64,000 nt of DNA from Nematostella vectensis (lineage: Eukaryota), in the NCBI RefSeq assembly GCF_932526225.1, contig NC_064039.1, positions 6,257,459 through 6,321,458 of the forward strand, in the 5' to 3' direction. This document shows, piece after piece, positions 34,801 to 62,383 of the stretch (the stretch's first letter is position 1; every line of letters starts with the position of its first letter). The translations under genes and the position numbers were made by a program. The notes below the pieces were generated by a model, which did no database searches, was not told the origin of the DNA, and worked only from the letters and a program-made list of their open reading frames with translations.

Positions 34801-37800
34801 ATTGACATATAAACGGAGTAAGGGCCATTTTTTAAGAAGTACTGTAGTACGATAACTCAGGAAATTAATGAGAACATAGCTTCTATAATCTATGGATTTT
34901 CCTCCTTCACATAGGTATGTCTTTATTGCAGGTTGATCCGTCTGATCCAGAAGCAGTGAAGGACATGTTTTCAGTACCAGACTTTATTGGATTCGTCTGC
35001 AAGAATATTGGTAAGTGTTTAAAGTTTATGATTCCTTTCCTCCCATCAACATTAGCGTTGTAAAAAGAGAGAAGATAAGATAGGAAAGAAAGTGAAGCTG
35101 TTGGAAATAACTTAAATTCTAGCTCTTAGGTTTGGTTTCAAGGTTAGGTGAAAAGTTCGAAAATGCTTGTCAGTACTGTATCTTTACGTGGCGTGGTTTT
35201 TCAGCGAGTCGCATCCGCGCTAATGTCGCGCAGGTGACGTTTGACGAGTTCCATCGCTACTCAGCCAAGATCATCAGGAAGGCGGTGTTTGGAGTGGATG
35301 AGAAAGGAAATGTCAGGAACAGACTGCGATTTGACGATAATCGATTGGTGAGTACTCATGATTTGGGTGTTTCAGCCACAAAGACTGCAAATAGAACATC
35401 CCAATTGACATATTGATATCGACAGAAGCAACAGAAAGTTAAACGTTTTTTATTATTATAAAGTTTTGCTCCACCCTAATGTAAGTTGGGTAGTATATGC
35501 TCAATTACGAGGGCTTAAATGAAAAGCCGTCTACATTACGGTAACGTTGGAAATAATCTCCCTCTACTCCCGGCTGCCCTTCGTTCTCCATACGTTTCTC
35601 TTGTGGGTCTGAATAGGGATGGTGATTGCATTCTCTTAGTGCAGCTTAATGTTTGCAACGGCTTTCACAAGTGACCATCCGCACGTCAATAGCCCTCGGC
35701 AGCATTCCCGTTTTGACGCACGTCTGTGGCTGTTTTCTATGCAGGTGGTGACTAACATAGATATCCAGAGCATCGAGCCTGTTGACCTGAATATGCGCGA
35801 CAGCCTCAGCAAGTCTGTGCAGATGGCCATTGAGATCTCCACAAAGTACGTCCATTACGTATAGACACCATACCACATTGAGATCTCCACAAGGTGCCTC
35901 CATTACCTATAAATTGCATACCACATCGTGATCTCAAAATAAATAGCATACTATCCATTACACTTCCATTTTTTTACCTCGTTCTCTAAAACGCTCCAGT
36001 GGTTTCGATTGTTTCAGGCAATGCCATGTATCAGTGTATTAGACAACCCCCCAGTAGTTCAACTCTCTTGTTTCGTCTAGATCTATTGAGATGGCTGCTG
36101 CACAGGAAGCCAAAAGAACGGAACAAGCTGCCCGAGGACAATTAGAACGACAAAAACTCACCAACGAAAAGGTAACTAAACTTATGAAACAAAAATACCA
36201 CCAGGAGGGTTCTGCCCATCTATTAGAACCATTTTGTGTCGTTGACATAGATTTTTGCATACAATGAATGGACTATAATTGTTTGCAGGATGCTGAGGCT
36301 GCCCGTAAGAACCTTTATGAGCTCCAGGCAATAACAGCAGCTGTAGAGTCGTCAGGGCAGACGAAAGCTGAGTCCAAGGTAAGGTGTCCATCTTACTCAT
36401 ATTTCTTTACCCCTTTTCTGTGGTCCTTCTACTTACTTTTTCCCTCCCCCTTCTTCCTCATTCACATCCCCCTTATTTACATCTTCTTTCCCTCACCCAA
36501 GCTTCATCCTCTGGATCCCTCATCCTCTTTCCCTCCTTCCTCCTCCACATCTCCCATACTCTTCTCCCCCTCCTTCTTCTTACACGTCTCCCATACTTTT
36601 TTCCCTCCCCCCTTCTTCCTCCTCCACGTCTCCCATACTTTCCCTCCCCCTTCTTCCTCCTTCACGTCTCCCATAATTTTTCCCTACCCCTTCTTCCTCC
36701 TTCACGTCTCTCATAATCTTTCCCTCCCCCTTCTTCCTCCTCCACGTCTCCCATACTCTTTCCCTCCCCCTTCTTCCTCCTTCACGTCTCCCATAATCTT
36801 TCCCTCCCCCTTCTTCCTCCTTCACGTCTCCCATACTCTTTCCCTCCCCCCTTCTTCCTCCTCCACGTCTCCCATACTCTTTCCCTCCCCTTCTTCCTCC
36901 TTCACGTCTCCCATACTCTTTTCCTCCCCCTTCTTCCTCCTCCATGTCTCCCATACTCTTTCCCTCCCCCTTCTTCTTCCTTCACATCTCCCATAATCTT
37001 TCCCTCCCCCTTCTTCCCCCTCCACGTCTCCCATACTCTTTCCCTCCCCCTTCTTCCTCCTTCACGTCTCCCATACTCTTTCCCTCCCCCTTCTTCCTCC
37101 TCCACGTCTCCCATACTCTTTCCCTCCCCCCTTCTTCCTCCTCCATGTCTCCCATAATCTTTCCCTCCCCCTTCTTCCTCCTTCACGTCTCCCATACTCT
37201 TTCCCTCCCCCTTCTTCCTCCTTCACGTCTCCCATACTCTTTCCCTCCCCCTTCTTCCTCCTTCACGTCTCCCATACTCTTTCCCTCCCCCTTCTTCCCC
37301 CTCCACGTCTCCCATACTCTTTCCCTCCCCCTTCTTCCTCCTCCATGTCTCCCATAATCTTTCCCTCCCCATTCTTCCTCCTCCACGTCTCCCATACTCT
37401 TTCCCTCCCCATTCTTCCTCCTCCACGTCTCCCATCTTCTTTTCCTTTCTTCTTCCTTTCTCCTTCACGTCTTCCATACTCTTTTATTTATCTCCATCTC
37501 CATTATCATCTTAATTCTTTATGTATTTTTCTAGGCAAAGGCGGAAAAACTCTTGATCGAAGGTCAAAGTGCGATAGAATGTAAGTTTAATTCAGGCGCA
37601 CCATCCGTTCACGGAGGATATGTTACTTGTTCGCGAATGAATGATCACAAATACGATATGTGGCCTAACTCAGTCAACGTTTCGATAACGAAAACCACAC
37701 CTAAAAACACACTTGCAACCTTATTATTAATCTATTTCTCAGCAACACCTTCATTTAGAGTTGTTAAAGTACCTGCGTAATTAATGCGTCCTTGACTTTA

Positions 37801-39229
37801 TCAGTGGCCAGGCTGAAGGCAGAAGCGGCGCAGATAGAACTACAAGCGGAGTTGGAATCAAGAAAGATAGTAAGTTTGGAGGGTAATCGTGCGAGAATCT
37901 TTTTCGCCAGGTGTTTTTTTCTCTTGTTATGAATGTAAACTTAACGGGATTTGATAAATGAAATGGTGCTAGCATTCCATTACATATCTTTTTCAATAAC
38001 TAGACAAAGAGCTTTGTAATATGATATAAATGATAATGCTGTATATGCATTGAAAAAAGTAAAAGCATCACACAACAGGGCGTCGGATGTTTGTCGTTCT
38101 ACAGAAACGCGAAGGGGAGCTCGACTTCCTTAAGAAGAAAAACGAACAGGAAATACAGCGTGCCAAAGAACTGGCGGCCGTGGAGGTGAGAGGTGTTTTG
38201 AGATGGTTGCTCTGTGTTGGTGTTGTGTGTTGTTGTAGGTGAGGTGTTGTGTGTCGTTTTAGGTAAGGTGTTGTGTGTTGTTGTAGGTGAGGTGTTGTGT
38301 TTTATTGTAGGTGAGGTGTTGTGTTTTGTTGTAGTTTAATTGTTGTGAGATGGTTGCTTTAGGGTTAGGTGTTGTGTGTTACTGTAGGTGAGGTGTTGTG
38401 TGTTGTTGTAGGTGAGGTGTTGTGTTGTGTTTTGTTGTAGGTGAGGTATTGTGAGATGGTTGCTGTAGGGTTAGGTGTTGCGTGTTGTTGTAGATGAGGT
38501 GTTGTGTTATGGATGATGTGGGTTTGTTGTTGTGAGTGATTGGTACTGTCTGTTGGAGTGTTGTCGGTTGAATGGTTGACGAAAAGCATTTTCCATCCCC
38601 AATTCAAGGTCGCCAAGTTCTCAGCCAAGGTGAAATCAATCAAGCCAAAAACAATCAGCAACATCGCTAAGTCAGGACCGCGCTCGAAGGTAAACAGCGA
38701 TAAGCGTTAATCTTTTTCTTTGTCGTGTTTTTCCAATAAAACGAACCCAACCTCAAATAGATACAGCGCTGGCAATTTTCAACGCAATGGGAAGTAGTCT
38801 TGCGCCACTACCAAACAGCTCCAGCATTTTTGGCAAACACCAAGGGCCCTTGCAAGAACCTTTTTTGGCGTGAGGGAGGGGGACGGGGGCATGGACAGTC
38901 CTTGTTTTCATATGTGGGGGGCCAGTAGGGCTGCGATTGGGGTGAAATCCATGGATACTAAGCATTGTCGCCAAGGACTCCTTTGTCTAGGATTAACCGA
39001 GAAGGGCCGTGCTAGCAGTGTAAAATTGTGCTGGCAGTTAAATGTATAGTGACGCAACAGTGAAGACAAAGCCATAGCTACCAATACTACAACTACTATT
39101 GCATGAAGTTTTATTCGGCTTACTCTCAACTCTCTCTCTTTCCTTTCAGGCGGAGTTGCTCCAGTCACTTGGAATAGAACAAGCTCTCATTACGGATGGC
39201 AAGACACCACTGAACTTGTTCCAATCAGG
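22823..39229 (+). CDS. MVP: major vault protein gene, at least 28 coding exons. 3' terminal exon(s) downstream of 39229 were not located. Example exons: 22823-22876, 23289-23422, 23877-23943, 24020-24074, ~25680-25790, ~26939-27032, ~27640-27750, ~28060-28210, ~28730-28840, ~29890-29990, ~30490-30560, ~30890-30990, ~31770-31860, ~32910-32970, ~33045-33095, ~34248-34330, ~34650-34720, ~34930-35020, 35205-35347, 35744-35846, ~36080-36170, ~36285-36378, ~37530-37580, ~37805-37870, ~38100-38190, ~38600-38690, ~39150-39229.
   Basis: exon translations match MVP along its whole length ([18 protein letters not shown] / [44 protein letters not shown] / [13 protein letters not shown] / …/ coiled-coil cap-helix exons [39 protein letters not shown]); canonical GT-AG boundaries at each. 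Confidence 0.9.
23289..23422 (+). CDS. MVP: MVP exon 2
   Basis: CTGTAG acceptor, AC|GTGAGT donor. Confidence 0.8.
23877..23943 (+). CDS. MVP: MVP exon 3
   Basis: TTTTAG acceptor, AAG|GTAAGA donor. Confidence 0.7.
24020..24074 (+). CDS. MVP: MVP exon 4 ([18 protein letters not shown])
   Basis: AAAG acceptor, AAAG|GTTAGT donor. Confidence 0.75.
24640..25595. repeat. intronic minisatellite, ~37-bp unit CAGTGAGTATCCCTTACCTATCAGCCAACTCCATATG x ~26
   Basis: direct tandem repetition. Confidence 0.9.
28960..29665. repeat. intronic minisatellite, ~60-bp unit (…CATTAGCGCGTATTGCTCATTGTTTTCTCATAATTCCAATTGATGACGCGCGTTCTTTTAT…) x ~11
   Basis: direct tandem repetition. Confidence 0.9.
30180..30440. mobile_element. 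MITE (~260 bp) with ~36-bp TIRs TTAAAGCCGCATTGTCACCAGTTTACTTCCGG… A related shorter copy lies at 33550..33705.
   Basis: perfect terminal inverted repeats at 30186-30222 and 30392-30437; second family member shares both termini. Confidence 0.6.
31875..32440. repeat. intronic minisatellite, ~60-bp unit (…CCACGCCCATCCAATCTCATGCCAATCCTACCACACCCATGTCCGCTACCTCTGGCTAAACA…) x ~9
   Basis: direct tandem repetition. Confidence 0.9.
32459..32768. mobile_element. MITE (~310 bp) with ~26-bp TIRs GG(A/G)CC(A/G)GTTCCTGAAA(G/A)GCCGATTA
   Basis: terminal inverted repeats immediately flanking non-coding GTTAG-rich interior; sits directly after the minisatellite. Confidence 0.55.
33550..33705. mobile_element. 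second, internally deleted member of the 30180..30440 MITE family
   Basis: shares both terminal ~40 bp and the internal TTGTCTTTTAACG segment. Confidence 0.5.
33985..34250. repeat. minisatellite, 26-bp unit CTAAGTATAAGTCTGATCAAATATA x ~10
   Basis: direct tandem repetition. Confidence 0.9.
36395..37460. repeat. CT-rich minisatellite, ~40-bp unit CTCCACGTCTCCCATACTCTTTCCCTCCCCCTTCTTCCTC x ~26
   Basis: direct tandem repetition; generates long spurious low-complexity ORFs on both strands. Confidence 0.9.
38195..38520. repeat. GT-rich minisatellite, ~30-bp unit GTAGGTGAGGTGTTGTGTGTTGTT
   Basis: direct tandem repetition. Confidence 0.85.
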
Positions 39230-39444: not shown

Positions 39445-40900
39445 TCCGTGCAAACGCTAAATTAGCCAGTGCTGCTGGCACAGCAATGTTAAATTAGCCA
39501 GTACTGCTGGCCTAGCAATGTTAAACTAGCCAGTACTGATGGCCTAGCAATGTTAAACTAGCCAGTACTGATGGCCTAGCAATGTTAAACTAGCCAGTAC
39601 TGATGGCCTAGCAATGTTAAACTAGCCAGTACTGATGGCCAAGCAATGTAAGATTAGCCAGTACTGCTGGCCTAGCAATGTTAGATTTGCCAGTACTGCT
39701 GGCCTAGCAATGTTAAATTAGCCAGTACTGCTGGCCTAGCAATGTTAAATTAGCCAGTACTGCTGGCCCAGCAATGTTAAATTAGCCAGTACTGCTGGCC
39801 CAGCAATGTTAAATTAGCCAGTACTGCTGGCCTAGCAATGTTAGATTAGCCAGTACTGCTGGCCTAGCAATGTTAAATTAGCCAGTACTGCTGGTCCAGC
39901 AATGTTAGATTAGCCAGTACTGCTGGCCAAGCAATGTTAAATAAGCCAGTACTGCTGGCCTAGCAATGTTAAATTAGCCAGTACTGCTGGCCCAGCAATG
40001 TTAAATTAGCCAGAACTGCTGGCCCAGCAATGTTAGATTAGCCAGTACTGCTGGCCCAGCAATGTTAAACTATCCAGTACTGCTGGCCTAGCAATGTTAG
40101 ATTAGCCAGTACTGCTGGCCCAGCAATGTTAGATTAGCCAGAACTGCTGGCCCAGCAATGTTAGATTAGCCAGTACTGCTGGCCTAGCAATGTTAAATTA
40201 GCCAGTACTGCTGGCCTAGCAATGTTAGATTAGCCAGTACTGCTGGCCTAGCAATGTTAAACTATCCAGTACTGCTGGTCCAGCAATGTTAGATTAGCCA
40301 GAACTGCTGGCACAGCAATGTTAAATTAGCCAGTACTGCTGGCCTAGCAATGTTAAATTAGCCAGTACTGCTGGCCTAGCAATGTTAAATTAGCCAGTAC
40401 TGCTGGCCTAGCAATGTTAAATTTGCCAGTACTGATGGCCCAGCAATGTTAAACTAGCCAGTAATGCTGGCCTAGCAATGTTAAATTTGCCAGTACTGCT
40501 GGCCTAGCAATGTTAAATTAGCCAGAACTGCTGGCACAGCAATGTTAAATTAGCCAGTACTGCTGGCCTAGCAATGTTAAATTAGCCAGTACTGCTGGCC
40601 TAGCAATGTTAAATTAGCCAGTACTGCTGGCCCAGCAATGTTAGATTAGCCAGTACTGCTGGCCCAGCAATGTTAAATTTGCCAGTACTGCTGGCCTAGC
40701 AATGTTAAATTAGCCAGTACTGCTGGCCTAGCAATGTTAAATTAGCCAGTACTGTTGGCCTAGCAATGTTAAATTAGCCATTACTGCTGGCCTAGCAATG
40801 TTAAACTAGCCAGTACTGCTGGCCCAGCAATGTTAGATTAGCCAGTACTGCTGGCCTAGCAATGTTAGATTAGCCAGTACCGCTGGCACAGCAATGCTGG
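39445..40900. repeat. minisatellite/satellite, ~37-bp unit TAGCAATGTTAAATTAGCCAGTACTGCTGGCC x ~39
   Basis: direct tandem repetition with point variants, no unique spacers. Confidence 0.9.
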
Positions 40901-44769: not shown

Positions 44770-45748
44770 AATCGCCCCTGCTCATGGTTGCTCACTTCCG
44801 GTTTGCCAAGGAAACCCAGATGAACAGGGAACAAATTGAATGGGCGCATGCATTTTTTTTACGCTCGATATATTTATTTTTCAAGAATAGTGTTTCGTTT
44901 TAGTTTTTTTTACTGGATTCGTTAAGAGATTTCTTTATCCCAATCCAAGTCTTAATGGTATACATACCACCAGTACTCTTCCTGTTTGCTCGCCGATACA
45001 ACGTAACCATCTTCGCTTCTTGACTTGGCCTCGCTCCACCTTTGAAGATTGGGCTTGACATCGTTTGCGTCCTCTTTGCTCATGTTGCTGCTGAATTTAA
45101 AAATCATGAAAACACGAACTTTTACAACTAACTATTGGGGAATCTGGAGCGAGTTTAAAAGGTCGACTTTGCCTGATGTGAAAAACAAAACCTACAAGAC
45201 AGAGAAAAATGTGGGTGTTCGAGTGTACTGTAGCCTACCCCGTAGGCATCTCAAAGAGCATTCAACTGTTCAAAGAGCAATAGAGAAAAATTGCCCAACA
45301 CCGCCTGGTTGAACTCCCTGTGGAGTGCTCATGATTTCTCACTTCCGGTTTGCCAAGGAAACCCAAATCAAAGGGGAATAAATTGAATGGACGCATGCAT
45401 GGTTTTACGCTCGATATATTCATTTTTCAAGAATAGTGTTTCGTTCTAGATTTTTCTTACTGGATTCTTTTAGAGATTTCTTTATCCGTATCCAAGTTTA
45501 CACTGAAGAGTAGTGTGTTACCTTTCGGCCTTAGTCGGCTGAACATCGCTCAACTTTTCCAGATCAGGCTTGACATCCTTTGTGTCTTCTTTGCTCATGT
45601 TCCTGCTGACTCTAAAAATTATGAAAGCGTGAACTTTCACAATAAGCGGTATGGGGTAATCTGGAGAAGGTTGGAAGGTCGAATTTGTTTGATGTGAAAA
45701 AAAAAACCCTTCAAGACTGAGGAAAATGTGGGCTAAAGCCTTTCCCTC
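44770..45748. repeat. ~550-bp tandem repeat x ~1.8; the second unit is interrupted by the Polinton. The repeat resumes, diverged, after 62384, and a partial third copy lies at ~43850..43930.
   Basis: unit A 44775-45327 versus unit B 45328-45748 aligned; right flank 62384+ aligns to the remainder of unit A. Confidence 0.7.
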
Positions 45749-46300
45749 AGTAGTAGGGTTTTGGCGCAGCTGGCGCAACTTTTTGATCTCCCCAAATTTC
45801 ATTCCAAAAGTGGCGCAAAAGTCTCCGCACACCTCCGCCAAGCCTCGCGACCTGCGCATGCGCGAGTTTGCCAGAGATCTCTCGCACGACCAAGCCCACC
45901 TGTCAATCACTTTGTCACGTGACGGCCACGCCCACCTGTCAATCACTTTGTCACGTGACGGCCACGCCCACCTGTCAATCACTTTGTCACGTGATAGCCA
46001 CGCCCACCTGTCAATCATTTTGTAAAAAACCTGTCAATCACTTTGTCACGTGATGACCACGCCCACCTGTCAATCATTTTGTCAAAAACCTGTCAATCAC
46101 TTTGTCAAAAACCTGTCAATCACTTTGTCAAGAACCTGTCAATCACTTTGTCAAAAACCTGTCAATCACTTTGTCAAGAGCCTGTCAATCATTTTGTCAC
46201 GTGATAGCCAAGCCCACCTGTCAATCACTTTGTCACGTGCTGCACCTAGGGGGAGCCTGGGGGCTATTCTGGTCTAAAGACGTATGAGACCCTAGATAAA

Positions 46301-46561
46301 ATGACATTAAAGACGGAGGTGAAGATTAAAAACGGTGCGGCTACCGCCGGCGGTTGTTCGGTGCCGGAGGTGAACGTGAGTAACACTGCGGATGCGGGGC
46401 CTGAACACTGCTGTTGTAACGCTGATTACTATGAAGACTCAGAATACGGAAGCTTCGACCCCGTTGGGTTTGTGGCCGGAGCGGCGACAATTGTCCTTGG
46501 TGTTCTAGCAATGTTAGTCTCCATGCCACGGTATGGCGAAAAAAGATGGGTGAGATACTAG
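46301..46561 (+). CDS. small hypothetical membrane protein (86 aa, one TM) encoded inside the left-TIR-specific insertion
   Basis: ORF with upstream TCTAAAGACG promoter-like motif; TM FVAGAATIVLGVLAMLVSM. Confidence 0.3.
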   Translation: MTLKTEVKIKNGAATAGGCSVPEVNVSNTADAGPEHCCCNADYYEDSEYGSFDPVGFVAGAATIVLGVLAMLVSMPRYGEKRWVRY

Positions 46562-46703
46562 TCCACGGATGTGGTGCGGAGGCTTTAGACCGCACCGCCC
46601 CCACGCGGACCCCTTCGGAAGTCTTAGCAACCACACACATCACACCCAGAGGGAGCTCGAGGGGCTAGCCTCTCAGCTTCACATCTAAAAAAGCTTTTGA
46701 AAA

Positions 46704-46716
46704 GTGGTTTAAAGAC
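46704..46716 (+). promoter_or_regulatory. conserved promoter motif GTGGTTTAAAGAC 18 nt upstream of the TFIIB-like gene ATG
   Basis: identical motif and spacing at 47752-47764 (ankyrin), 48651-48663 (Cys-rich) and reverse-complement 61839-61852 (pPolB). Confidence 0.6.
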
Positions 46717-46733
46717 ATGAACAGTTTAATAAA

Positions 46734-47660
46734 ATGGAGGAACGAACAGTTGAACGTACGGCTGAAGATCGGTCACCACCACCATATAATATCCTCGGCG
46801 GACCGGTGCCTGAGATTAACGCCCCCACCCTCATGCCGGAATTTGCACTGTTTGACCGAGCCCTCACCGAATACGAGACTAGTAGAGCCTCCTTGGGAGA
46901 CGAGGATAGTAGTAACACCCTTTGCAATCATGGCGACCTAGTCACAGAGGACGGGGTCACTAGTTGCTTAGAGTGCGGGGAACAGATGCAGCGCGTGATC
47001 GCGCACGAAAGGGAATGGGGTTTTTACGGACATTCCGACGGCGAACGGTCTTCGGATCCAAGTCGGGTCCAGGTACGTAGGTCTGAGGATAGAAATATTG
47101 ACAAGGATGTGGAGAACATGGGTTTTAGCGGGGTAATTGTATCCAAAGCTAACGAGATATACACTCAGGTGACGAAAGGCCAGATTTTTCGCGGCGACCC
47201 ACGGAAGGCGGTCGTCTTTGCGTGTATCTACTACGCCTACAAGATGTCCGGTAAGTGTCAGACACCGAAAACCTTGATGGAAACTTTTGGATTGAGCAGG
47301 AAGAGTTGCCTTAAGGGTCTAAAAATCTTTAGTATTAACGTGCCTAAAGATTACTTACTACACGGAACGTCTCCCACCGTCGTGGACCACATTCACGATG
47401 TGATGGATAGATTCTCGGCGTCCCCCGCACAGAAGGGAGAGGTGGTCCAGCTCTACTACAGATCTAAGAACCGCTCGTCTGAGTTGAATCGCGCTCGCCC
47501 ACAATCCTTTGCGGTCGCTTTAACCTATTACTGGGTACGGCTAAAGGGGGTCGATATTACACTTAAAAAATTCTCCGAAAGAACGGGCGTCTCCGAGTTA
47601 ACCATCAGTAGGAAAGCGAGAGAAGTGGCCACAGTCCTGGGTACGCCTGGTGTGGTATGA
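46734..47660 (+). CDS. TFIIB-like transcription initiation factor (N-terminal Zn ribbon C-x-H-x15-C-x2-C, B-reader/linker, two cyclin-like repeats, C-terminal HTH)
   Basis: LCNHGDLVTEDGVTSCLECGEQ…EREWGFY parallels TFIIB [24 protein letters not shown]…GSEWRTF; core ANEIYTQV…AVVFACIYYAYKMSG…TLMETFGLSRKSCLKGLKIF parallels TFIIB cyclin repeat 1. Confidence 0.8.
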   Translation: MEERTVERTAEDRSPPPYNILGGPVPEINAPTLMPEFALFDRALTEYETSRASLGDEDSSNTLCNHGDLVTEDGVTSCLECGEQMQRVIAHEREWGFYGHSDGERSSDPSRVQVRRSEDRNIDKDVENMGFSGVIVSKANEIYTQVTKGQIFRGDPRKAVVFACIYYAYKMSGKCQTPKTLMETFGLSRKSCLKGLKIFSINVPKDYLLHGTSPTVVDHIHDVMDRFSASPAQKGEVVQLYYRSKNRSSELNRARPQSFAVALTYYWVRLKGVDITLKKFSERTGVSELTISRKAREVATVLGTPGVV

Positions 47661-47664
47661 TGTT

Positions 47665-47688
47665 TCCTGATTTCCAGAGAAATCAGGA
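47665..47688 (+). terminator. perfect 10-bp stem/4-nt loop hairpin 5 nt after the TFIIB-like stop codon (TCCTGATTTC-caga-GAAATCAGGA)
   Basis: seen in sequence; a similar hairpin follows the Cys-rich gene. Confidence 0.35.
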
Positions 47689-47751
47689 TTTCCAGAAAAC
47701 TGTCAGTTCGGAGTAGATGTGAATTAACACGTCTAAAGAAATTCGAAAAAA

Positions 47752-47764
47752 GTGGTTTAAAGAC
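47752..47764 (+). promoter_or_regulatory. promoter motif GTGGTTTAAAGAC 18 nt upstream of ankyrin gene ATG
   Basis: see 46704. Confidence 0.6.
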
Positions 47765-47781
47765 GTGGATGTAATAACAAA

Positions 47782-48606
47782 ATGGATATGCAAAGTGCTG
47801 GAAGTCTTACAAATCTCACCGTGGAGGATCAAGCCGCCACCTTAGCGAGGTGGGGAGCCGCAGACTTTGACGCCGTTATGGAGCGCGCGGCGTGGGAGGG
47901 GTGCGTCGAGACCGTGAGGTTGTGTAAGAGTTGGGGTGCGACGGATTTCGAAAAGCCGATGGTCAGGGCCGCAATGAACGGCCACACCGAGATCGTTAAG
48001 ATGTGTTGTGAGTCGGGCGCCTGTGACTTCGTGTATCCAGCGTCCATGGCCGCGAAAGGCGGGCACGTAGAGGTTTTGAAGGTGATGGGCGAGTATTGTG
48101 CCGACGGAGGAGAGGCCATGACCGAGGCCATGGGTGCTGCGGCGGCGGAAGGTCAGGTGGGGGTTGTTGAGTTGTTGATAGATCTAGGTGTCGATGTCGA
48201 TGTCGGTTGGGCCACCGCTGAGGCGGCGTACAATGGGCACGTTGAGGTTCTGAAGCTGCTGAGAGAAAACTTCTGGGAGTTTGACCCGGACTATGCTATA
48301 ACACCAGCCATCGAATCTCGCAACCTCGAGATTGTGAGGTTGTGCTTGGAGTGGGGCGCGACCGATCTCATTGTACATATGAACTACGCACGGTTTTGGC
48401 ATCTGCATAAGATTTTCGCGGTGCTACGTGCGGCGTGGGGGTGGAGTCTTGTGCATGAGGAGCTCCCGGAGAAGCTACACAAGGTGAGATTCCGTAGAAA
48501 GCTGGAGGACGAACTAATGCCAGTAGCTTGGCATCCGGACAGGTTTTGGGATTGGTGCATGGATGAGCAAGAGAAGGAAATGTTGGGAGAATGCTTCGCC
48601 AGGTAG
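47782..48606 (+). CDS. ankyrin-repeat protein (at least 5 ANK repeats: …AAMNGHTEIVKMCCESGA…, AAKGGHVEVLKVM, AAAEGQVGVVELLIDLGVDV, AAYNGHVEVLKLL, …NLEIVRLCLEWGA)
   Basis: repeated ~33-aa ANK consensus (A.-G----V--LL--GA). Confidence 0.8.
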   Translation: MDMQSAGSLTNLTVEDQAATLARWGAADFDAVMERAAWEGCVETVRLCKSWGATDFEKPMVRAAMNGHTEIVKMCCESGACDFVYPASMAAKGGHVEVLKVMGEYCADGGEAMTEAMGAAAAEGQVGVVELLIDLGVDVDVGWATAEAAYNGHVEVLKLLRENFWEFDPDYAITPAIESRNLEIVRLCLEWGATDLIVHMNYARFWHLHKIFAVLRAAWGWSLVHEELPEKLHKVRFRRKLEDELMPVAWHPDRFWDWCMDEQEKEMLGECFAR

Positions 48607-48650
48607 ACGCCGACCGGCTAGAAGGCGGGTATCGCGTGTTGGATTGAAAA

Positions 48651-48663
48651 GTGATTTAAGGAC
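48651..48663 (+). promoter_or_regulatory. promoter motif GTGATTTAAGGAC abutting the first ATG of the Cys-rich gene. The 60 bp around it duplicates the pPolB promoter/5' end.
   Basis: AAAGTGATTTAAGGACATGACCGGTTTGATAGAAATGGAGAAC versus AAAGTGGTTTAAAGACATGACTGGTTTGATAGAAATGGAGAAC (pPolB). Confidence 0.6.
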
Positions 48664-49011
48664 ATGACCGGTTTGATAGAAATGGAGAACCAAACGGTGA
48701 AAGACTCGAAAGTATCCCCCGTAAAGCGAACAACGGATTATAAGTGTCTTCATGGCAGAGTGAAATATTATTGCAAAGATTGTCACGGATCGCAAATCTG
48801 CCCTCACAACCGGAGAAAAACGCGGTGCAGAGAATGTAACGGCGGTAGCATTTGTGAGCACAGACGAGCAAGATATGTCTGTAAAGACTGCAAGGGGAAA
48901 GGGATGTGTGAACACAGCAAACAGAGACCCTTTTGTAAGTTATGCGGAGGGTCTCAAATATGCGAACACGATAGACAAAAGCACCATTGCAGAACGTGTA
49001 ACGGAAATTAA
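48664..49011 (+). CDS. basic Cys-rich protein with four tandem zinc-knuckle-like modules C-x2-C-x5/6-C-x-H-x6-C. Putative nucleic-acid-binding/core protein. N-terminal MTGLIEMEN shared with pPolB.
   Basis: CKDCHGSQICPHNRRKTRC / CRECNGGSICEHRRARYVC / CKDCKGKGMCEHSKQRPFC / CKLCGGSQICEHDRQKHHC; K/R/H-rich. Confidence 0.65.
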   Translation: MTGLIEMENQTVKDSKVSPVKRTTDYKCLHGRVKYYCKDCHGSQICPHNRRKTRCRECNGGSICEHRRARYVCKDCKGKGMCEHSKQRPFCKLCGGSQICEHDRQKHHCRTCNGN

Positions 49012-49026
49012 CATTGACCCACTCAG

Positions 49027-49053
49027 TTTTGTAACGCGTCTCACGTTACAAAA
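49027..49053 (+). terminator. 10-bp stem hairpin (TTTTGTAACG-cgtctca-CGTTACAAAA) 16 nt after the Cys-rich gene stop
   Basis: seen in sequence. Confidence 0.35.
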
Positions 49054-49208
49054 CACATACATTCCTAATCACCCTAACAACTAGCGATTCTGAAAATAGG
49101 TTTTGTATTTACATTGAGAGTTCGCGGTCGCCAGGGTGGTCTGGTATGCACGTGAACAGGTATTGTCTTCTTGCGGTACGTCACATCCGTCCACATGCAC
49201 CCCGCATG

Positions 49209-50735
49209 TTACCGGAATAGATACCAAGCTAAACCAGCCGTAAAGGCTGTGATCGTGACAAGGTTATTTTCGTGCTGCGTGTTCGTGGGTTTAATCACGT
49301 CCGGCTTTGGGTTAGTTTTCGCCTCCGGTTCCGGTTTGTGAGCCGTGACTGACTCGGTATGAGGTAACACAATCTTTGAATGACCCATATTATGTTTAGG
49401 GATCGTTTTTATCTCGTTATTTATCGGATTCAGCCCCAGTTTCATATCAGTGGTGGCTTTTTGTAACTTGTTATTATAGCCAGCGATCGAAGTGTTGTTA
49501 TTTATCACAAGATACGATGGACTTAACCAACAGCCGAGGGCGAAAGCTAGGTCTAGTTTTTGTCTCGCCTGTTGTAAAGCAAACTGATACCGTTGTATAC
49601 TTTTCGATATACTGTTTTCCACCACCGCGCTTTCGAAGAGTTTCGTGAAGACCTGTTTCGTTTCCTGAGCTGAACCGCTATCGCCGACGATTGACGACCG
49701 GGTCTGAACTTGCGCGCCTAGAATACAGTAGACAAAGGCTTCGATGCTCTGGTTTATCCTAGACAACCCAGCTTTGGTTAACCCCATTGATTTTTCCGGA
49801 AAGAACCACTCATACTGAAACCCAGTTCTAAGGTCTTTCAGGTACTCGATCTCAAAGTGATTCATGTGTTCGTGGTCGCTTTTGGCAGCGTCCCATTCGT
49901 CGTGTAATTGATCAATGGTGCCATAAGGCTTATACTTGTCGTTAGAAGATGACAAGCCGTGATAATCATAATTATAAACGTTCCCTAACCCGTGATTTAT
50001 CGGTCTGAGGAACCGGAAATCGTCACCAGTTCGGAATTCTGTTCTTAGTTTTTGGTAAGCCGCTTCGCTGTAAAAGTTTTTATTCCAACTAAAGAGCCTA
50101 TCTTTTGGAAGAGGGCATTGTAGCTCGTTTAATATTCGTCTGATAGTGAAAATGATGTGAAATCTGTAGAATGACCCCACTTGAGAGTCGTCAATCATGT
50201 CACGCGTCACACCACATCCAGCAGTCGCGCAAAACATAGCAAAATTTAAGGCTTGACTCCAATAACTGAGGTTTGGGGCGTCGAGCCACCTACTAGCCTC
50301 CTTTGCTGTTCTGAATACTAGCAAGCTGTCGGTGAATATGTCCCTAAAAACAAAGTGTGTCTTCACCTTTGGTGTTATAAAAACATTAAAAGAGACGTAA
50401 TTATTTCTCGTAGGGTTTTCGTCCCACGGCAATATCTTGTACTCTGCACGCGCGTCTAGTCTGTATTGTTTTGGGAACCCAAACAGTTGCTGGATCGTTT
50501 CCTTGTATGCTTGTGTGTCGTCGGCGACTAGAAAATCCTGGATATTCTCGGGTTTCCAGCTATTACCAGGGAAGTGATATAACGTTTTGACTAGATTCCC
50601 ATTCTTGTCGAATGGATCGTATTCGTCCCCATTGAAAACGAATTGCACATTGCCGTGCCCGTCGGCAGAGAACCTGAAGCGTGAGTAGTAGGGGTACCTT
50701 TTCACAAATTCTGTAAACTTCATCTTATATGACAT
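49209..50735 (-). CDS. hypothetical 508-aa protein with C-terminal transmembrane anchor (LVTITAFTAGLAWYLFR); no recognisable family
   Basis: long intact ORF with GATTTAAAAACATC promoter-like motif upstream; second in-frame ATG (M5) has the canonical spacing. Confidence 0.6.
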   Translation of the reverse strand: MSYKMKFTEFVKRYPYYSRFRFSADGHGNVQFVFNGDEYDPFDKNGNLVKTLYHFPGNSWKPENIQDFLVADDTQAYKETIQQLFGFPKQYRLDARAEYKILPWDENPTRNNYVSFNVFITPKVKTHFVFRDIFTDSLLVFRTAKEASRWLDAPNLSYWSQALNFAMFCATAGCGVTRDMIDDSQVGSFYRFHIIFTIRRILNELQCPLPKDRLFSWNKNFYSEAAYQKLRTEFRTGDDFRFLRPINHGLGNVYNYDYHGLSSSNDKYKPYGTIDQLHDEWDAAKSDHEHMNHFEIEYLKDLRTGFQYEWFFPEKSMGLTKAGLSRINQSIEAFVYCILGAQVQTRSSIVGDSGSAQETKQVFTKLFESAVVENSISKSIQRYQFALQQARQKLDLAFALGCWLSPSYLVINNNTSIAGYNNKLQKATTDMKLGLNPINNEIKTIPKHNMGHSKIVLPHTESVTAHKPEPEAKTNPKPDVIKPTNTQHENNLVTITAFTAGLAWYLFR

Positions 50736-50813
50736 ATAAGATGTTTTTAAATCAGTCCTTTACGCATCTCAATTCATAGATCCATCCGACGGGAGTTCTC
50801 TCGTACAGAAATT

Positions 50814-51419
50814 TCACCGAGCGGGTCGACTCGCCAGGTCTTTCAAAATCTCTTCTCTTACTGTTTCCCTCAGCTTGGTAATGTTTACGTTTTTTTCGTC
50901 CTCTCTTACCGACTTTTGACGGATCTGGAGCTTTAGAGCCTCAAACTTGTCCACCTCGTTCAAGATTAAAGAGAACTCTTCGTCTGATATTTTGTTGTCT
51001 TTTAAAGCTTTAGAGACCAGGTCGCGTATGCTATTTACTTTTGCCTTTGCCATCGCCGCTGTTTGGTCGTGCTTGGAGACTTTTTGCGACAGCCGTTTAG
51101 AAACCGCCGCACAGCCTACAGACGTAAGACCGAAAACACCGGCCAAAGCACCCAACGGAACTCCGACGACGATACCAAAACCTGACAGAGAAGTCCCCAA
51201 ACCACTAGACCCAAGAATGACGGATAAGAGTCCTAAGACCACACTTAACTTTGAAAACACGCTCTGCCCTCGTTTATACTTTTTCCTCACGTTCTCGTAA
51301 TGTTTAACTTCTTGCTCCAAACTTCCCAAAACATCGTGGGTCTTTTGGAGTCTGAAGTTATCACCCGAGGGGCTGACCCCTCGGGGTACGTTCGGGTAGA
51401 TTGAGTTGTACTCTTCCAT
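50814..51419 (-). CDS. hypothetical membrane protein (201 aa, two glycine-zipper TM helices, C-terminal coiled coil)
   Basis: ORF plus upstream CACTTAAAGAAT motif. Confidence 0.55.
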   Translation of the reverse strand: MEEYNSIYPNVPRGVSPSGDNFRLQKTHDVLGSLEQEVKHYENVRKKYKRGQSVFSKLSVVLGLLSVILGSSGLGTSLSGFGIVVGVPLGALAGVFGLTSVGCAAVSKRLSQKVSKHDQTAAMAKAKVNSIRDLVSKALKDNKISDEEFSLILNEVDKFEALKLQIRQKSVREDEKNVNITKLRETVREEILKDLASRPAR

Positions 51420-51446
51420 AGCTTTATTATGGGGAGAATTTATTCT

Positions 51447-52070
51447 TTAAGTGATTTCTAAAATTAGACGTATCGGGTAGAGACCGCGCTCTATTGTGTT
51501 TCCGTCACCACCCTTTATACTAAGACGGAGACTACTCACGTAACCGACTGATGTGGTGCTAACCCGTACCGGATCGCTTGGATTGAGGTATATCTTTCCT
51601 TCATCAAGCTCTACACTTGCTAGGATTTGTGAGGGCGCCCCTTGTTGGAGGGAGTCAGACGCGTTCACAAGATCGCAGTGGATAAAAATAGCCTCGTGAC
51701 CTATCATCTTTATCTCGTGGCGAGTGTTTGCTTCCAGCTCCCTGGTCTTGAGTCCTAACAGGCAGGCGAGCGGCTCATTCAACGCGACGTTCCGGTGAAC
51801 TTCGAGTGACGAGTCTCTAATAGAGACTGACTTTTCACCAAGACGCATACCCCCATCTATTTGACGTTTTAGCGTCTCGATCGTATACTGCCCCGCGGGG
51901 ATCCTAAGGATAATGTTCTCACCGTCGGAGACCGTTCCCTCGCTTGAGAGACTGTTACAACGATTATGAAACGCACATCCTCGCAGCGCGATAAACCGCG
52001 GCTTTTCAATAGGTTGTTCTAAATAGACAGTAAAGTCACCAACGTTTCCTTCAATGTAGAGTAATACCAT
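51447..52070 (-). CDS. hypothetical beta-rich 207-aa protein; candidate single-jelly-roll minor capsid (penton) protein
   Basis: size, position in the virion-gene block and alternating hydrophobic pattern; upstream GATTTAAAAGGAGAC motif. No motif-level recognition. Confidence 0.45.
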   Translation of the reverse strand: MVLLYIEGNVGDFTVYLEQPIEKPRFIALRGCAFHNRCNSLSSEGTVSDGENIILRIPAGQYTIETLKRQIDGGMRLGEKSVSIRDSSLEVHRNVALNEPLACLLGLKTRELEANTRHEIKMIGHEAIFIHCDLVNASDSLQQGAPSQILASVELDEGKIYLNPSDPVRVSTTSVGYVSSLRLSIKGGDGNTIERGLYPIRLILEIT

Positions 52071-52073
52071 TTG

Positions 52074-53096
52074 TTATGATTTCCGTCTCCTTTTAAATCG
52101 TTCTACGGAATACAGGACGACAGCGACGATGAGAAGCCATGCGTTTTTAGCTAAAAAGCCAACAACTTCACCTGCCGTTCTAAATATGAAACTAGCTATA
52201 GCACCAACCATTCCTGGGAGTATTTCTCCTAATTTTTTGCCTATTGTTTTCAGACCATTTCCAACACCTTTTGCAACACTAGTCAGCCCAGCTTTCAGAT
52301 TAGAGACAATAACACCGATAACAACGCCCACAGCGGTAACGACAGCAGCGACTGTAAATCCGTATTTCTTAAAAATCGCTTTGACACGATCTTTCAACGA
52401 CATTCTCTCTTCAAGATTTTCTCTCTCCAATTGATTCTCTTCCAAAGTCTCATCTATGACAGAATTTCTTTCGCTGAGCTCTTCATTTTTACGATCTATA
52501 GCTCTTAGTCTTTCTTGGTTAGTTGTTTCACTTCGTTCCTCATTATTTTTTCTCATTTGCTCGGTGTTTCTCTCTTCTTCTTCTCTGAGTGTATTACCTG
52601 TAGCGTCTAGTTCATCGAGTTGAATCTGAATTTGCTTGTACTTTCCGGATCTGATTTTGTCGTCAACACTCTTCCGCACCGTTCTATCCTCATTATACAA
52701 CCTTTCTGGTCTAGTCCAACCACCTTTTCTCGCAGAATAGAAGGAAATGAATTGTTTTCCTCTCTCATCCGTTGAAATCTGAACTAGATTTTCATCAAGA
52801 TCTGGATATTTCGATAACAAAAGGTCTACCCTAAGTGTGTCCGTTGAAGGAGAACCTCCCATATTCTGTAACTCCATGTACTCGGGGACAGCCCTCCCGG
52901 GGTTTCGTGTTTTCCATAAGTCAGTCAACCTCCTACTCACATAGCTTGCACCTCTACCAAATCTGTTTGAAATCCTTTCATTCCATGATTCTCTTCCCTC
53001 ACCATCGTTTGGAATAAGAGAGTCATAATCTTCGTCTACAGTAGTATTCAAATCTTCTCTACCTTCTTCTGTTGTGGGATCAAAATCTATATCCAT
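52074..53096 (-). CDS. hypothetical 340-aa protein: acidic N-terminus, E/R-rich coiled coil, C-terminal multi-TM region
   Basis: ORF plus upstream GACTTAAAGATTT motif. Confidence 0.55.
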   Translation of the reverse strand: MDIDFDPTTEEGREDLNTTVDEDYDSLIPNDGEGRESWNERISNRFGRGASYVSRRLTDLWKTRNPGRAVPEYMELQNMGGSPSTDTLRVDLLLSKYPDLDENLVQISTDERGKQFISFYSARKGGWTRPERLYNEDRTVRKSVDDKIRSGKYKQIQIQLDELDATGNTLREEEERNTEQMRKNNEERSETTNQERLRAIDRKNEELSERNSVIDETLEENQLERENLEERMSLKDRVKAIFKKYGFTVAAVVTAVGVVIGVIVSNLKAGLTSVAKGVGNGLKTIGKKLGEILPGMVGAIASFIFRTAGEVVGFLAKNAWLLIVAVVLYSVERFKRRRKS

Positions 53097-53140
53097 TTCT
53101 TATTTTGTTTGAAAATAAGAAATCTTTAAGTCGTGCCAGC

Positions 53141-53557
53141 TCATATCCACCTACTCGCTACATAGCCAAGGGCTAACATTCCACCTCCAACGTACGCCAT
53201 CTCTCCCATCTTTTGGTTGCTACTTGGTCTGTAGTAATCTGAGAGCTCAGGCTCTTTCAAATCAAAATCTGGATGTGTTTGAGCGTATAGTTTGAAAGCC
53301 TCATCCGTCTCTTTATCGTTCTCATCCGCACGAACTTTATCGTTGTATTGTTCAGTCAACCAATCCTGGTATTCCTGTCTTTTTTTCTGCCAATCACCCA
53401 TTGCTTGTTGATACTTTTCAAGCGCTTTATCGTGTCTTATTTTTTCTTTATCAACATGAGTAGCGTCAGAAGACAAGTATCTCGCTAGGTAACTCCCTCC
53501 GACAAACGCCGTCGCATTAATAAAAGCCCCACCAATCATAAATGCTATACTCGCCAT
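53141..53557 (-). CDS. hypothetical membrane protein (138 aa; N- and C-terminal TM segments)
   Basis: ORF plus upstream CGACTTAAAGATC motif 19 nt from ATG. Confidence 0.5.
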   Translation of the reverse strand: MASIAFMIGGAFINATAFVGGSYLARYLSSDATHVDKEKIRHDKALEKYQQAMGDWQKKRQEYQDWLTEQYNDKVRADENDKETDEAFKLYAQTHPDFDLKEPELSDYYRPSSNQKMGEMAYVGGGMLALGYVASRWI

Positions 53558-53589
53558 TTATTAATCAATCTATAAGATCTTTAAGTCGC

Positions 53590-53814
53590 CTACAGCGGTT
53601 TTGGCAAAATCTTTTGTGTTTCCAGATAATCTTTCAGATACATACTACCGGACAGGACAGCAACCCATTTAGCGTAGTTTGTAACACTTGACGAAGGGTC
53701 GCTGATGAATGACTCTTTCATAGCCTTTTTAGCAACATAACCCACGCCGGCGGCTAATCCGATGATGACTGCTGAGTCGGTGATCGTTTTCACAAGTTTG
53801 TTTTCAGTTGACAT
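53590..53814 (-). CDS. hypothetical small membrane protein (74 aa)
   Basis: ORF plus upstream GATTTAAAGATTATC motif, preceded by the 30-bp palindromic element. Confidence 0.45.
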   Translation of the reverse strand: MSTENKLVKTITDSAVIIGLAAGVGYVAKKAMKESFISDPSSSVTNYAKWVAVLSGSMYLKDYLETQKILPKPL

Positions 53815-53849
53815 GATTTTATTTATTACAGATTCAGATAATCTTTAAA

Positions 53850-54311
53850 TCACAACATTCCTATTTTTGGCGTCGCGTTCGGGAGGCTAGCCCCTCGAGC
53901 TCCCCCTAGGTGGGAGGTGGGTCTCCCAAGAGTTTCGGCCTCGTTGACGTTAATCTTAGACGGCTCGCCCTCTTTCTTTTTGTAAAAACGCATATACATA
54001 TCCAATGCGGTGAGCCCTATTCCAACTAGAGCCAGTACAGTTGTAAACGATAGCTCTGGAATCCAAGCGTCCGAGAGGCTATCCCCTCGAGCTCCCTCTT
54101 GGTGGGGTGTCTCTGCTCGTGCAGCGTCTTCTGAACTCGCCTCCGCCTCGCGTTTCATCTCCCTAGCAAGTGCTTCTCTACACCTCCTATTATATTCGGC
54201 AACTCTCTTACCAGAAGCGACTTTTATAGGATCTTTCTCCTTAGCGGCACTCTTCTTCCTGGGGGGAGGGTCCTTTGTGATTTGCTCAACCTCTTGATTT
54301 TCGTCAGACAT
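53850..54311 (-). CDS. hypothetical 153-aa protein, basic N-terminus plus one TM
   Basis: ORF plus upstream GATTTAAAGATTC motif. Confidence 0.5.
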   Translation of the reverse strand: MSDENQEVEQITKDPPPRKKSAAKEKDPIKVASGKRVAEYNRRCREALAREMKREAEASSEDAARAETPHQEGARGDSLSDAWIPELSFTTVLALVGIGLTALDMYMRFYKKKEGEPSKINVNEAETLGRPTSHLGGARGASLPNATPKIGML

Positions 54312-54453
54312 GATTCTTTACTCACTGAATAAAGAATCTTTAAATCACATCATGCTCAAGAGCTTGCTCAGTTGTGCTCAAGAGCTTGCTCAGGTGTGCT
54401 CAAGAGCTTGCTTAGGTGTGCTCAGGTGTGCTCAAGAGTTTGCTTAGGTGTGC

Positions 54454-54981
54454 TCAGGTGTGCTCAAGAGTTTGCTCAGTTGTGCTTGAAACTTCTTGAA
54501 GTTTGTTGGAAGTCTCCTGTGAAGGTGTTAGTTTAACATGCTTAGCGACCCGAAAGATGGCACTAGCAAGTGCTACCATCCTTCCTCCCTTCAATACCAA
54601 GAGACCTGCAAAGTTTGACAATTCGCGTTTAACCAACTCGTCGTTCTGTAAGTCTTTGCTAAGCGCTTCGGTGTCATCTACAGGAACCACGTAGGAAATG
54701 ACTTGAGACACCACTTGAAGTGCTGATTCTACTAATCCATCAGTAACTTGTTTGCCTAAGACAGTCTGGTAGCGAACAAAGTACTTTTCGACGTCTTTCG
54801 CCGGGAGCTTCTTGATGTCCCCTAAACTCATGTCCACACCAAGAAATTCCTTCGTAGTCCCAAGAGATGCGAGAATAGCCAGCGATTCTCGTTTGACTTC
54901 AACATCGTCTTCGAGAGGCTCACCCTTCGAGCTCCCCTTAGACTTAGGCTCCTCTTCCATATAATCCTCAATGCTTGCCAT
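54454..54981 (-). CDS. hypothetical 175-aa acidic protein (likely start MASIEDYMEEE…; the six-frame ORF extends to 55047)
   Basis: AAGTGGTTTAAAAACATC motif lies 25 nt upstream of the internal ATG at 54981, and the 30-bp palindrome abuts it. Confidence 0.5.
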   Translation of the reverse strand: MASIEDYMEEEPKSKGSSKGEPLEDDVEVKRESLAILASLGTTKEFLGVDMSLGDIKKLPAKDVEKYFVRYQTVLGKQVTDGLVESALQVVSQVISYVVPVDDTEALSKDLQNDELVKRELSNFAGLLVLKGGRMVALASAIFRVAKHVKLTPSQETSNKLQEVSSTTEQTLEHT

Positions 54982-55043
54982 CTTATTTTGTAAGTAGACC
55001 AAGATGTTTTTAAACCACTTCGAGGGGTCAGCCCCTCGAGCTC

Positions 55044-55670: not shown

Positions 55671-55698
55671 TCTTTTTGTATTATCACACAAGTCCTTT

Positions 55699-56937: not shown

Positions 56938-56970
56938 CTTTTATTTTAAGAAAAGAGAGATAATCTTTAA
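56938..56970. promoter_or_regulatory. 33-bp bidirectional promoter between MCP (-) and integrase (+): TTTTAAGAAAAGAGAGATAATCTTTAAA carries the TTTAAAGA-type motif in both orientations
   Basis: palindromic arrangement TTTAAGA…TCTTTAAA. Confidence 0.5.
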
Positions 56971-61838: not shown

Positions 61839-62383
61839 GTCTTTAAACCACTTTTCAAAAGCTTTTTTAGATGTGAAGCTTAGAGGCTAGCCTCCCGAGC
61901 TCCCCCTAGGTGCGACACGTGACAAAGTGATTGACAGGTGGGCTTGACTATCACGTGACAAAGTGATTGACAGGTTCTTGACAAAATGATTGACAGGTTC
62001 TTGACAAAATGATTGACAGGTTTTTTACAAAGTGATTGACAGGTGGGCGTGGCTATCACATGACAAAGTGATTGACAGGTTTTTGACAAAGTGATTGACA
62101 GGTGGGCTTGGCCGTCACGTGACAAAGTGATTGACAGGTTTTTTACAAAGTGATTGACAGGTGGGCTTGGCTATCACGTGACAAAGTGATTGACAGGTGG
62201 GCTTGGCTATCACGTGACAAAATGATTGACAGGTGGGCTTGGTCGTGCGAGAGATCTCTGGCAAACTCGCGCATGCGCAGGTCGCGAGGCTTGGCGGAGG
62301 TGTGCGGAGACTTTTGCGCCACTTTTGGAATGAAATTTGGGGAGATCAAAAAGTTGCGCCAGCTGCGCCAAAACCCTACTACT
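61839..62383. repeat. right TIR (545 bp) with ~12 TGATTGACAG-containing subrepeats and 4-5 CACGTG boxes
   Basis: reverse complement of left TIR. Confidence 0.9.

Follow-up and report, generated by a model that had tools for sequence, protein, structure and literature searches.

To our knowledge, almost nothing is known about the transcription of animal Polintons (Mavericks) or about what decides their activity. Viral enhancers built of tandem repeats include the 72-bp repeats of simian virus 40 (SV40), the 75-bp repeats in the long terminal repeat of murine leukemia virus (MLV), and the 18/19/21-bp repeats of cytomegalovirus (CMV), all of which lie upstream of early promoters. Subterminal repeats bound by the transposase are found in DNA transposons, such as the TnpA sites of En/Spm-CACTA, the hexamers of Ac/Ds, and the IR/DR of Tc1-like elements. 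The inverted terminal repeats (ITRs) of adenoviruses contain Sp1/ATF-type elements further in. Adenovirus ITRs also carry sites for the host factors NF-I and Oct-1, an NF-I site having been gained in a lineage-specific manner as a host adaptation (PMC6410123), and redundant ITR elements are reported, in the account which that source gives of earlier work, to promote bidirectional transcription (PMC6410123, its reference 18). In vertebrate Mavericks, AGTAGT is the commonest end motif, the terminal inverted repeats (TIRs) measure 46–1447 bp, and the target-site duplication (TSD) is 6 bp (PMC8097293). Neither viral tandem enhancers nor host-factor sites within terminal repeats are new for DNA viruses, the latter being known from protein-primed ones, and no description of subrepeat arrays, host-factor sites or tandem enhancers in Polinton/Maverick TIRs was found in the literature consulted. 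Here we describe a 16.6-kb element (45749–62383) within a 64-kb stretch of Nematostella vectensis DNA, hereafter the window, whose TIRs contain a tandem array of host-type transcription factor sites that may serve as a recently gained upstream enhancer.

Judged by its pPolB motifs, rve integrase, A32-type ATPase, TIRs and TSD, the element is a Polinton/Maverick, as the first-pass annotation of the window had recognized. It resembles vertebrate Mavericks in ending with AGTAGT, in having a TSD of only a few bp, and in TIRs whose length falls in the published range, and differs from them in a TSD of 5 bp (PMC8097293). Like an adenovirus, it is a linear, pPolB-replicated, virus-like genome with host-factor sites in its terminal repeats and inward-reading terminal genes. 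Unlike adenoviruses, where single sites lie beside the core origin, the Polinton has its sites in an array of 320–340 bp and 11–12 units that is 149 bp away from the end, these sites are of TALE homeodomain and bHLH-ZIP type, and the Polinton is an integrated element that has an rve integrase and a TSD. With the SV40, MLV, and CMV enhancers it shares a short unit rich in host-factor sites, tandem arrangement, a position upstream of promoters, and variable copy number, whereas its array is located in the TIRs and hence at both ends, with shorter units in higher copy number. Multiple direct repeats in both TIRs, internal to the cleaved terminus, are also a feature of the subterminal repeats of DNA transposons; those repeats, however, co-occur with the transposase across relatives, while relatives of the Polinton keep the enzymes without the array, and the Polinton units match a host consensus exactly.

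Structure and site content of the terminal array

The left TIR (45749–46261, forward strand, 513 bp) and the right TIR (61894–62383, reverse strand, 490 bp) form an inverted repeat with the TSD CCCTC directly outside (45744–45748 and 62384–62388). Their outer unique parts (45749–45897, forward strand, and 62235–62383, reverse strand) are identical at 149/149 positions when one is reverse complemented. This part comprises the terminus AGTAGTAGG (the right arm ends ...CCTACTACT), duplicated TTGGCGCAG/CTGGCGCAA boxes, an E2F-type TTTGGCGC (45760–45767), and a perfect NRF1-type palindrome GCGCATGCGC (45854–45863), the last two mirrored in the right arm. Further in, beginning 149 bp from the terminus, comes the array, which constitutes the inner part of the TIR. 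On the left it occupies 45898–46239 (342 bp, forward strand) with 12 units, five of 36 bp, six of 23 bp and one 24-bp partial, and on the right 61916–62234 (319 bp, reverse strand) with 11 units, five long, five short and one partial. It is followed by an inner edge common to both arms (46240–46261, forward strand; 61894–61915, reverse strand), so that the inverted repeat extends to 46261/61894.

The roughly 12 sites with interleaved E-boxes per TIR that the first-pass annotation had described were recovered as 12 on the left and 11 on the right, in units of 23 and 36 bp. The core CTGTCAATCA, whose reverse complement is TGATTGACAG, has 12 copies on the forward strand at 45900–46227 and 11 on the reverse strand at 61928–62232, where TGATTGACAG is accordingly read 11 times on the forward strand, and has no copy in the 64-kb window outside the two arrays. 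CACGTG, assigned earlier to the longer units, was confirmed with six copies in the left array and five in the right, CATGTG replacing it in one right-arm unit. Against an expectation of 0.17 copies, the 23 copies of the core were reached by 0 of 100 shuffles. The enrichment over shuffled sequence that had been anticipated is thus present, yet it is trivial for one motif amplified in tandem and says nothing on function.

Tandem Repeats Finder (TRF) returned array periods of 23, 36, and 59 bp, the last being the sum of the other two. The long unit of 36 bp reads ACCTGTCAATCA[C/T]TTTGTCACGTGA[C/T][G/A]GCCA[C/A]GCCC and the short unit of 23 bp ACCTGTCAATCA[C/T]TTTGT[C/A]AA[A/G]A. With L for long and S for short, the unit order is LLLSLSSSSSL on the left and LLSLSLSSSL on the right, a partial unit being added in either case, and the unit variants also differ between the arms. 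The right array, previously regarded as a mirror of the left, is therefore mirrored in strand, but not in unit number, order or variants. The comparison covers the two arms of one element copy. Because the arrays differ in these three respects while the outer TIR arms are identical, array turnover is, on this evidence, much faster than point mutation. Because the outer 149 bp are identical and the open reading frames (ORFs) intact, the copy itself is judged to be young or recently homogenized. Despite the strong reshuffling of units, the decamer TGATTGACAG is exact in 23/23 units, and invariance extends beyond the 10-bp core, with unit positions 2–12, 14–18, and 20 (CCTGTCAATCA.TTTGT.A) identical in all 23. 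The unique lead ahead of the array carries ACGACCAAGCCC, a copy of the long-unit tail, and CACG microhomology is found at the array junctions. BLAST against the rest of the window detected no other copy or fragment of the element or of the subrepeat unit. Exact-pattern scans with CCTGTCAATCAYTTTGT in IMG/VR and metagenome contigs gave single chance matches and no arrays, and a TIR-encoded pseudo-protein (IDRWAWLSRDKV repeats plus tail), used in a search for gene calls across sibling TIRs, gave no matches.

The box GCCACGCCC, found in half of the long units, is of KLF/SP type. The E-box of the long units stands in the context GTCACGTGA[C/T], and GTCACGTGAC is the CLEAR motif of MiT/TFE factors (PMC9562866). 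The assignment of the decamer to PBX-MEIS/PREP heterodimers agrees with the literature, in which TGATTGACAG is the 'very frequent decameric' PREP1-PBX1 consensus (PMC5240567). Nematostella possesses both PBX and MEIS, and Hox-TALE interactions have been studied in this animal (PMC3957477). To control for the look-elsewhere effect, 66 consensus sites forming a fixed panel were compared with the units, with the nine other minisatellites of the window, and with 20,000 shuffles of the long unit. The long unit contains two 20-bit sites and the KLF box, whereas the units of the nine other minisatellites reached at most 15 bits. Among the shuffles, one match of at least 20 bits was found in 0.02% (P = 2e-4) and two matches of at least 16 bits in 0.01% (P = 1e-4), and the double 20-bit match would still be very improbable with a ten-fold larger panel. 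By this control the unit is truly built from strong host-type factor sites and its motif content is not chance; the coincidental match to host motifs that had been offered as an alternative fits poorly with the 0.02% of shuffles.

The array is also placed in front of putative promoters. A [G/A]ATTTAAAGA-type box is located 15–35 nt before nearly every ATG of the window element and of two complete relatives (L147 and L148, described below). In its strict form, [TC]TTAAA[GA][AG] in sense orientation 8–45 nt upstream, it precedes 10 of 12 genes in the window element, 11 of 14 in L147, and 11 of 13 in L148, against an expectation of 0.2–0.4 genes, and these counts were reached in 0 of 2000 randomizations. 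We infer that this TTTAAAGA-type box is a TATA-like core promoter with a very short leader. Between the array and the first such box downstream there are 33 bp on the left and 68 bp on the right, and the genes next to the arrays point inward. On the left, the box TCTAAAGA (46273–46280, forward strand) follows the array after these 33 bp, and another 20 nt separate it from the start codon of an 86-aa ORF (46301–46561, forward strand). This ORF, the first past the left array, is a putative gene whose product would include a hydrophobic, membrane-like segment; it has a TCTAAAGA box to itself, sits within 380 bp unique to the left arm and is not on record elsewhere. On the right, the polymerase box TTTAAAGA (61840–61847, reverse strand) lies 68 bp inside the array. 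The leader, box and first codons of the polymerase gene recur in front of the TFIIB-like gene on the left (46640–46754, forward strand; box TTTAAAGA at 46708), where they form an inverted repeat with 83% identity to 61801–61915.

This leader with its box and first codons is present three times in the element (61790–61915, 46640–46754, and 48644–48712; 83–87% identity), the genes behind it being the polymerase, the TFIIB-like gene, and a 115-aa ORF. A single palindromic box at about 56964–56971 is common to the capsid and integrase genes, which diverge from it.

Comparison with related elements

Relatives were retrieved from ENA assemblies via polymerase and capsid homologs, yielding two complete elements and two polymerase-end termini. 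L147 (5744–19308) is 13.6 kb long, with TIRs of 456 nt that are 100% identical and the TSD CCGAC; L148 (5031–19195) is 14.2 kb long, with TIRs of 353 nt that are 97% identical and the TSD ATAAC; and L144 and L145 are represented by the polymerase-end terminus only. The four fall into three families, with L144 and L148 in one. Polymerase identity to the window element is 75% for L144 and 68% for L145, and the L148 polymerase belongs to the 90% cluster of L144; the L147 polymerase gene was called as two ORFs, and the range of 68–75% refers to L144 and L145. The terminus AGTAG[T/G]...CT[G/A]GCGCA is common to the window element and all four relatives, and its CTRGCGCA box at about +25–35 from the terminus is conserved across the family.

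The conservation of the core in related elements, on which the first-pass annotation had staked its proposal, was not observed. L144, L145, L147, and L148 have no 23/36-bp array, and TGATTGACAG, CACGTG, and CCACGCCC each number 0 in their TIRs; the complete elements L147 and L148 contain zero PBX-MEIS/PREP sites throughout. The relatives' TIRs are AT-rich, give only low-information matches to the site panel, and are without the NRF1- and E2F-type sites of the window element. The distance from the terminus to the polymerase ATG is 160–305 bp in the relatives vs. 545 bp in the window element. Among the genes of L144, L147, and L148, none has a Pfam match to TFIIB or ankyrin on record. On this comparison the array is a gain of the Nematostella lineage, and any function it has would be recent and lineage-specific. 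Because the integrase, polymerase, and terminus are conserved in relatives without the array, it cannot, judged from these genomes, be an essential origin or integrase-binding element, which also speaks against the earlier suggestion of iterons for the pPolB origin or of integrase sites. The conserved outer ~40 bp would be a better candidate for a role in origin or integration.

In contrast to the TIR array, an internal intergenic array of 11/22-bp periodicity with the core CTGAGCA/TGCTCA is shared by relatives, keeps its position across the family, and lies directly upstream of the next gene's box (window, 54353–54486; L144, 9341–9470; L148, 12413–12652; L146, 7305–7348). Since this array also stands before a promoter box, arrays ahead of core promoters would be a recurring layout of the family.

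In the relatives, the TIR extends into the N-terminal coding region of both terminal genes, each of which has a Rho_N/SAP-like domain. A palindromic sequence of ~350 bp, resembling a miniature inverted-repeat transposable element, lies directly outside the L145 terminus (9440–9790). The related element L146, a Logan contig of 14.3 kb, has no TIR and both starts and ends in a 30-nt inverted duplicate (1–30 and 14300–14329) inside the terminal genes. Short-read assemblies of the family break before the TIRs, and public short-read contigs would therefore be systematically without arrays.

Possible roles of the array

Our preferred reading, held tentatively, is that the array is a recently gained, lineage-specific upstream enhancer or upstream activating sequence in the TIR. 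A TIR segment of ~36 bp with the PREP/MEIS-PBX decamer and a MiT/USF-type E-box would have been amplified by slippage, giving a perfect decamer in each unit, a MiT/TFE/USF-type E-box in the long units, and a KLF/SP-type box in half of these. Its location in the TIR would place the module at both ends, so that one invention could serve both, 33–68 bp upstream of the first TTTAAAGA-type box. Host factors bound to the array would raise RNA polymerase II initiation at the inward-facing terminal genes, namely the polymerase on the right and the small ORF followed by the TFIIB-like gene on the left, and would thereby set these apart from the other genes, which have a bare core box only. Factor binding, a transcriptional effect, and a selective benefit are what we infer from the site content and position of the array. 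The absence of the array from relatives that share the polymerase, integrase, and terminus argues that it is not needed for replication or integration, and that regulation would be its natural role. The host-factor sites of adenovirus ITRs offer a precedent, and the tandem enhancers of SV40, MLV, and CMV a parallel. With its outer NRF1- and E2F-type sites, the whole TIR of the window lineage appears host-promoter-like in content. The set of NRF1-, E2F-, KLF/SP-, and USF/MiT-type sites suggests a broadly active promoter-proximal module more than a tissue-specific switch. Of the enhancer or tissue-specific switch proposed earlier, the enhancer part accordingly gains from the position directly upstream of the first core promoters, and the tissue-specific part found no support. 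A more ambitious version, in which an apparently active Polinton lineage rebuilt its TIRs as a host-type promoter/enhancer, host-driven early transcription from both ends is combined with the giant-virus-type TFIIB gained in that lineage and acting on the TTTAAAGA promoters, and the array is under selection and sets when and where (e.g., embryo or germline) the element is expressed, seems unlikely.

Several points weigh against an enhancer, and most of them would equally suit a functionless or hitchhiking minisatellite, that is, a 36-bp TIR piece with host-type sites amplified by slippage or unequal exchange, to which any factor binding is incidental. The array is missing from all four relatives. 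Flanking host DNA is ~12% minisatellite (5.8 of 47.4 kb, at least nine arrays), so that arrays arise easily here. The two arms differ in unit number and order, which speaks against tight constraint on the architecture, and they do so while the outer TIR is 149/149 identical, as rapid unconstrained turnover would produce; the CACG microhomology and the unit tail ACGACCAAGCCC in the unique lead are what simple slippage would leave. The KLF-type box has decayed to GCCAAGCCC in half of the long units, GCCACGCCC being present in the other half. Compared with the other unit positions, the decamer shows only marginal additional constraint (P = 0.05), with units that are not independent, and the 66-motif panel, drawn up once the motifs were known, gives a rough control. 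The specificity of TALE and bHLH-ZIP factors is deeply conserved, which is the basis for applying vertebrate-derived consensus sites to cnidarian factors, and this transfer is assumed. A functionless minisatellite would, on the other hand, leave unexplained the two perfect 20-bit sites (P ~1e-4 in shuffles; 0 of 9 other arrays), the NRF1- and E2F-type sites in the non-repeated outer TIR that relatives do not have, and the location of the array exactly upstream of the first promoters; its presence in both arms shows that it belongs to the mobile element and did not arise at the host locus after insertion. We regard this explanation as less likely than an enhancer, yet as a serious rival to it.

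The remaining explanations connect the array to the replication or the proteins of the element. As an auxiliary replication element, it would let host factors recruit or stabilize the terminal-protein/polymerase complex or open the terminus, with its main effect on DNA replication. The element does encode a pPolB, its replication strategy is related to that of adenoviruses, and both TIRs contain the array; in adenoviruses, the host factors NF-I and Oct-1 act in this way from their ITR sites, and gain of an NF-I site is documented as a lineage-specific adaptation (PMC6410123). The distances differ, however, as the array is 149 bp from the terminus while the adenovirus NF-I site is at nt 23–36 beside the core origin (PMC6410123), relatives replicate without the array, and CTRGCGCA at about +25–35 is the better origin-proximal candidate, which makes such a role improbable. 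Sites for a protein of the element itself, be it the integrase, the SAP/Rho_N domain of the polymerase, the TFIIB-like or the ankyrin protein, would render the match to host motifs coincidental. Same-orientation direct repeats at both ends do resemble the subterminal transposase-binding repeats of many DNA transposons, the 23-bp spacing is near two helical turns, and the gain of the array coincides with that of the TFIIB-like and ankyrin genes in the lineage. This explanation has to accommodate an integrase and a polymerase that are conserved (polymerase 68–75% where measured) in relatives without the array, a mixed 23-/36-bp spacing that breaks helical phasing, and a perfect match to two canonical 10-bp host sites that would very unlikely be coincidental; moreover, we know of no TFIIB-type protein that recognizes sequences like the array units. 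We consider it very unlikely as well.

Should the array be an enhancer, the principle known from adenoviruses, with host-factor sites placed in terminal repeats, would apply also to the proposed Polinton relatives of these viruses, and such regulation would be seen to have been gained recently by tandem amplification. If it is not functional, it would be a clear example of quick minisatellite turnover inside a TIR whose true termini stay identical. The family-wide core box, the lineage-specific host-factor array before the terminal genes, and a tractable host together offer handles on Polinton transcription, as reporter transgenesis, ATAC/ChIP, and developmental expression data are routine in N. 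vectensis.

Gene content and flanking DNA

The TFIIB-like gene (46734–47660, forward strand) encodes the same protein as N. vectensis XP_048581547.1. There are 33 members in its 90% cluster, and the element family is therefore multi-copy. The TFIIB-like proteins of N. vectensis are 83–96% identical, and XP_048582217.1 and XP_048588381.1 are further anchors for copies of the family. The protein matches human TFIIB with an E-value of only 1.8e-5, and over residues 34–308 it is 70% identical to a protein encoded at 10001–10885 of the environmental contig L149. This contig, which looks like that of a giant virus, also encodes a P9 domain of the PBCV minor-capsid type, a NIF phosphatase, and a DUF5872 domain. 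Hundreds of further environmental homologs share 50–70% identity and are without the first ~30 residues. By these affinities the gene is of giant-virus type and not a copy of the host TFIIB. TFIIB is treated as a giant-virus core gene in the literature, where no report of a TFIIB gene in a Polinton was found. In a test for virophage-like promoter mimicry, only two strict TTTAAAGA boxes were found in the 12 kb of L149. The L149 genes at 476, 1506, 8015, and 9599 have a GCTTAAAA/GTTTAAAA-type sequence ~25–30 nt before the ATG, with a loose TTAAAA likeness to TTTAAAGA. CCACGCC of the long unit was considered as a TFIIB recognition element (SSRCGCC) tied to the TFIIB-like protein and was rejected, as the link is post hoc, the match amounts to ~11 bits with no adjacent TATA, and the box is broken in half of the long units.

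The TFIIB-like gene is followed by an ankyrin-repeat gene (47782–48606, forward strand; Pfam), a lineage-specific accessory. The A32-type packaging ATPase (55044–55691, reverse strand; Pox_A32, E = 3.7e-11) is adjacent to a putative major capsid protein (55699–56937, reverse strand), whose Capsid_N match is weak (E = 0.0036, below the Pfam cutoff) and whose position is syntenic in all relatives. The rve integrase (56971–57963, forward strand) matches PF00665 with E = 9.9e-8 and 32.6 bits, which equals the Pfam cutoff. The pPolB is a 1308-aa ORF (57912–61838, reverse strand) with ExoI YADFES at ~498, motif C TDTDS at ~1138, and KxY at ~1206. The 1308-aa ORF has no DNA_pol_B_2 Pfam match, and the pPolB assignment comes from motifs and synteny; a comparison with PDB gave no informative sequence match. 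The second ATG, at 61820, is likely the true start, as the relatives' proteins begin there in the alignment. N. vectensis also supplies the closest polymerase homologs, at 89% and 80%. The N-terminus of the polymerase is SAP/Rho_N-like, and an Endonuclease VII-like insert (PF02945, E = 7.8e-6) at residues ~587–630 is also recorded for many polymerase homologs. A protease and a minor capsid protein were not identified in the subset of ORFs scanned, and IMG/VR contained neither a relative of the capsid protein nor a match to the terminus. The capsid 90% cluster includes KAL9963735.1 from the coral Oculina patagonica and the capsid from L144, although polymerase identity between this contig and the window is just 75%; the capsid is either unusually conserved or exchanged between anthozoan lineages.

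The minisatellites of the host DNA in the window are located at 7280–7558, 24636–25597, 29141–29664, 31872–32442, 33994–34242, 36531–37484, 38190–38542, 39458–40896, and 62498–62952. The 28-bp array at 7280–7558 was considered as a copy of the TIR unit and rejected, since it has only a CCACRCCC-type box in common with it and adjoins an apparent host exon. Its unit is similar to the end of the long unit in the TIR (GATAGCCACRCCC), and CCACRCCC (KLF-type) boxes occur in the host arrays starting at 7280 and 31872.

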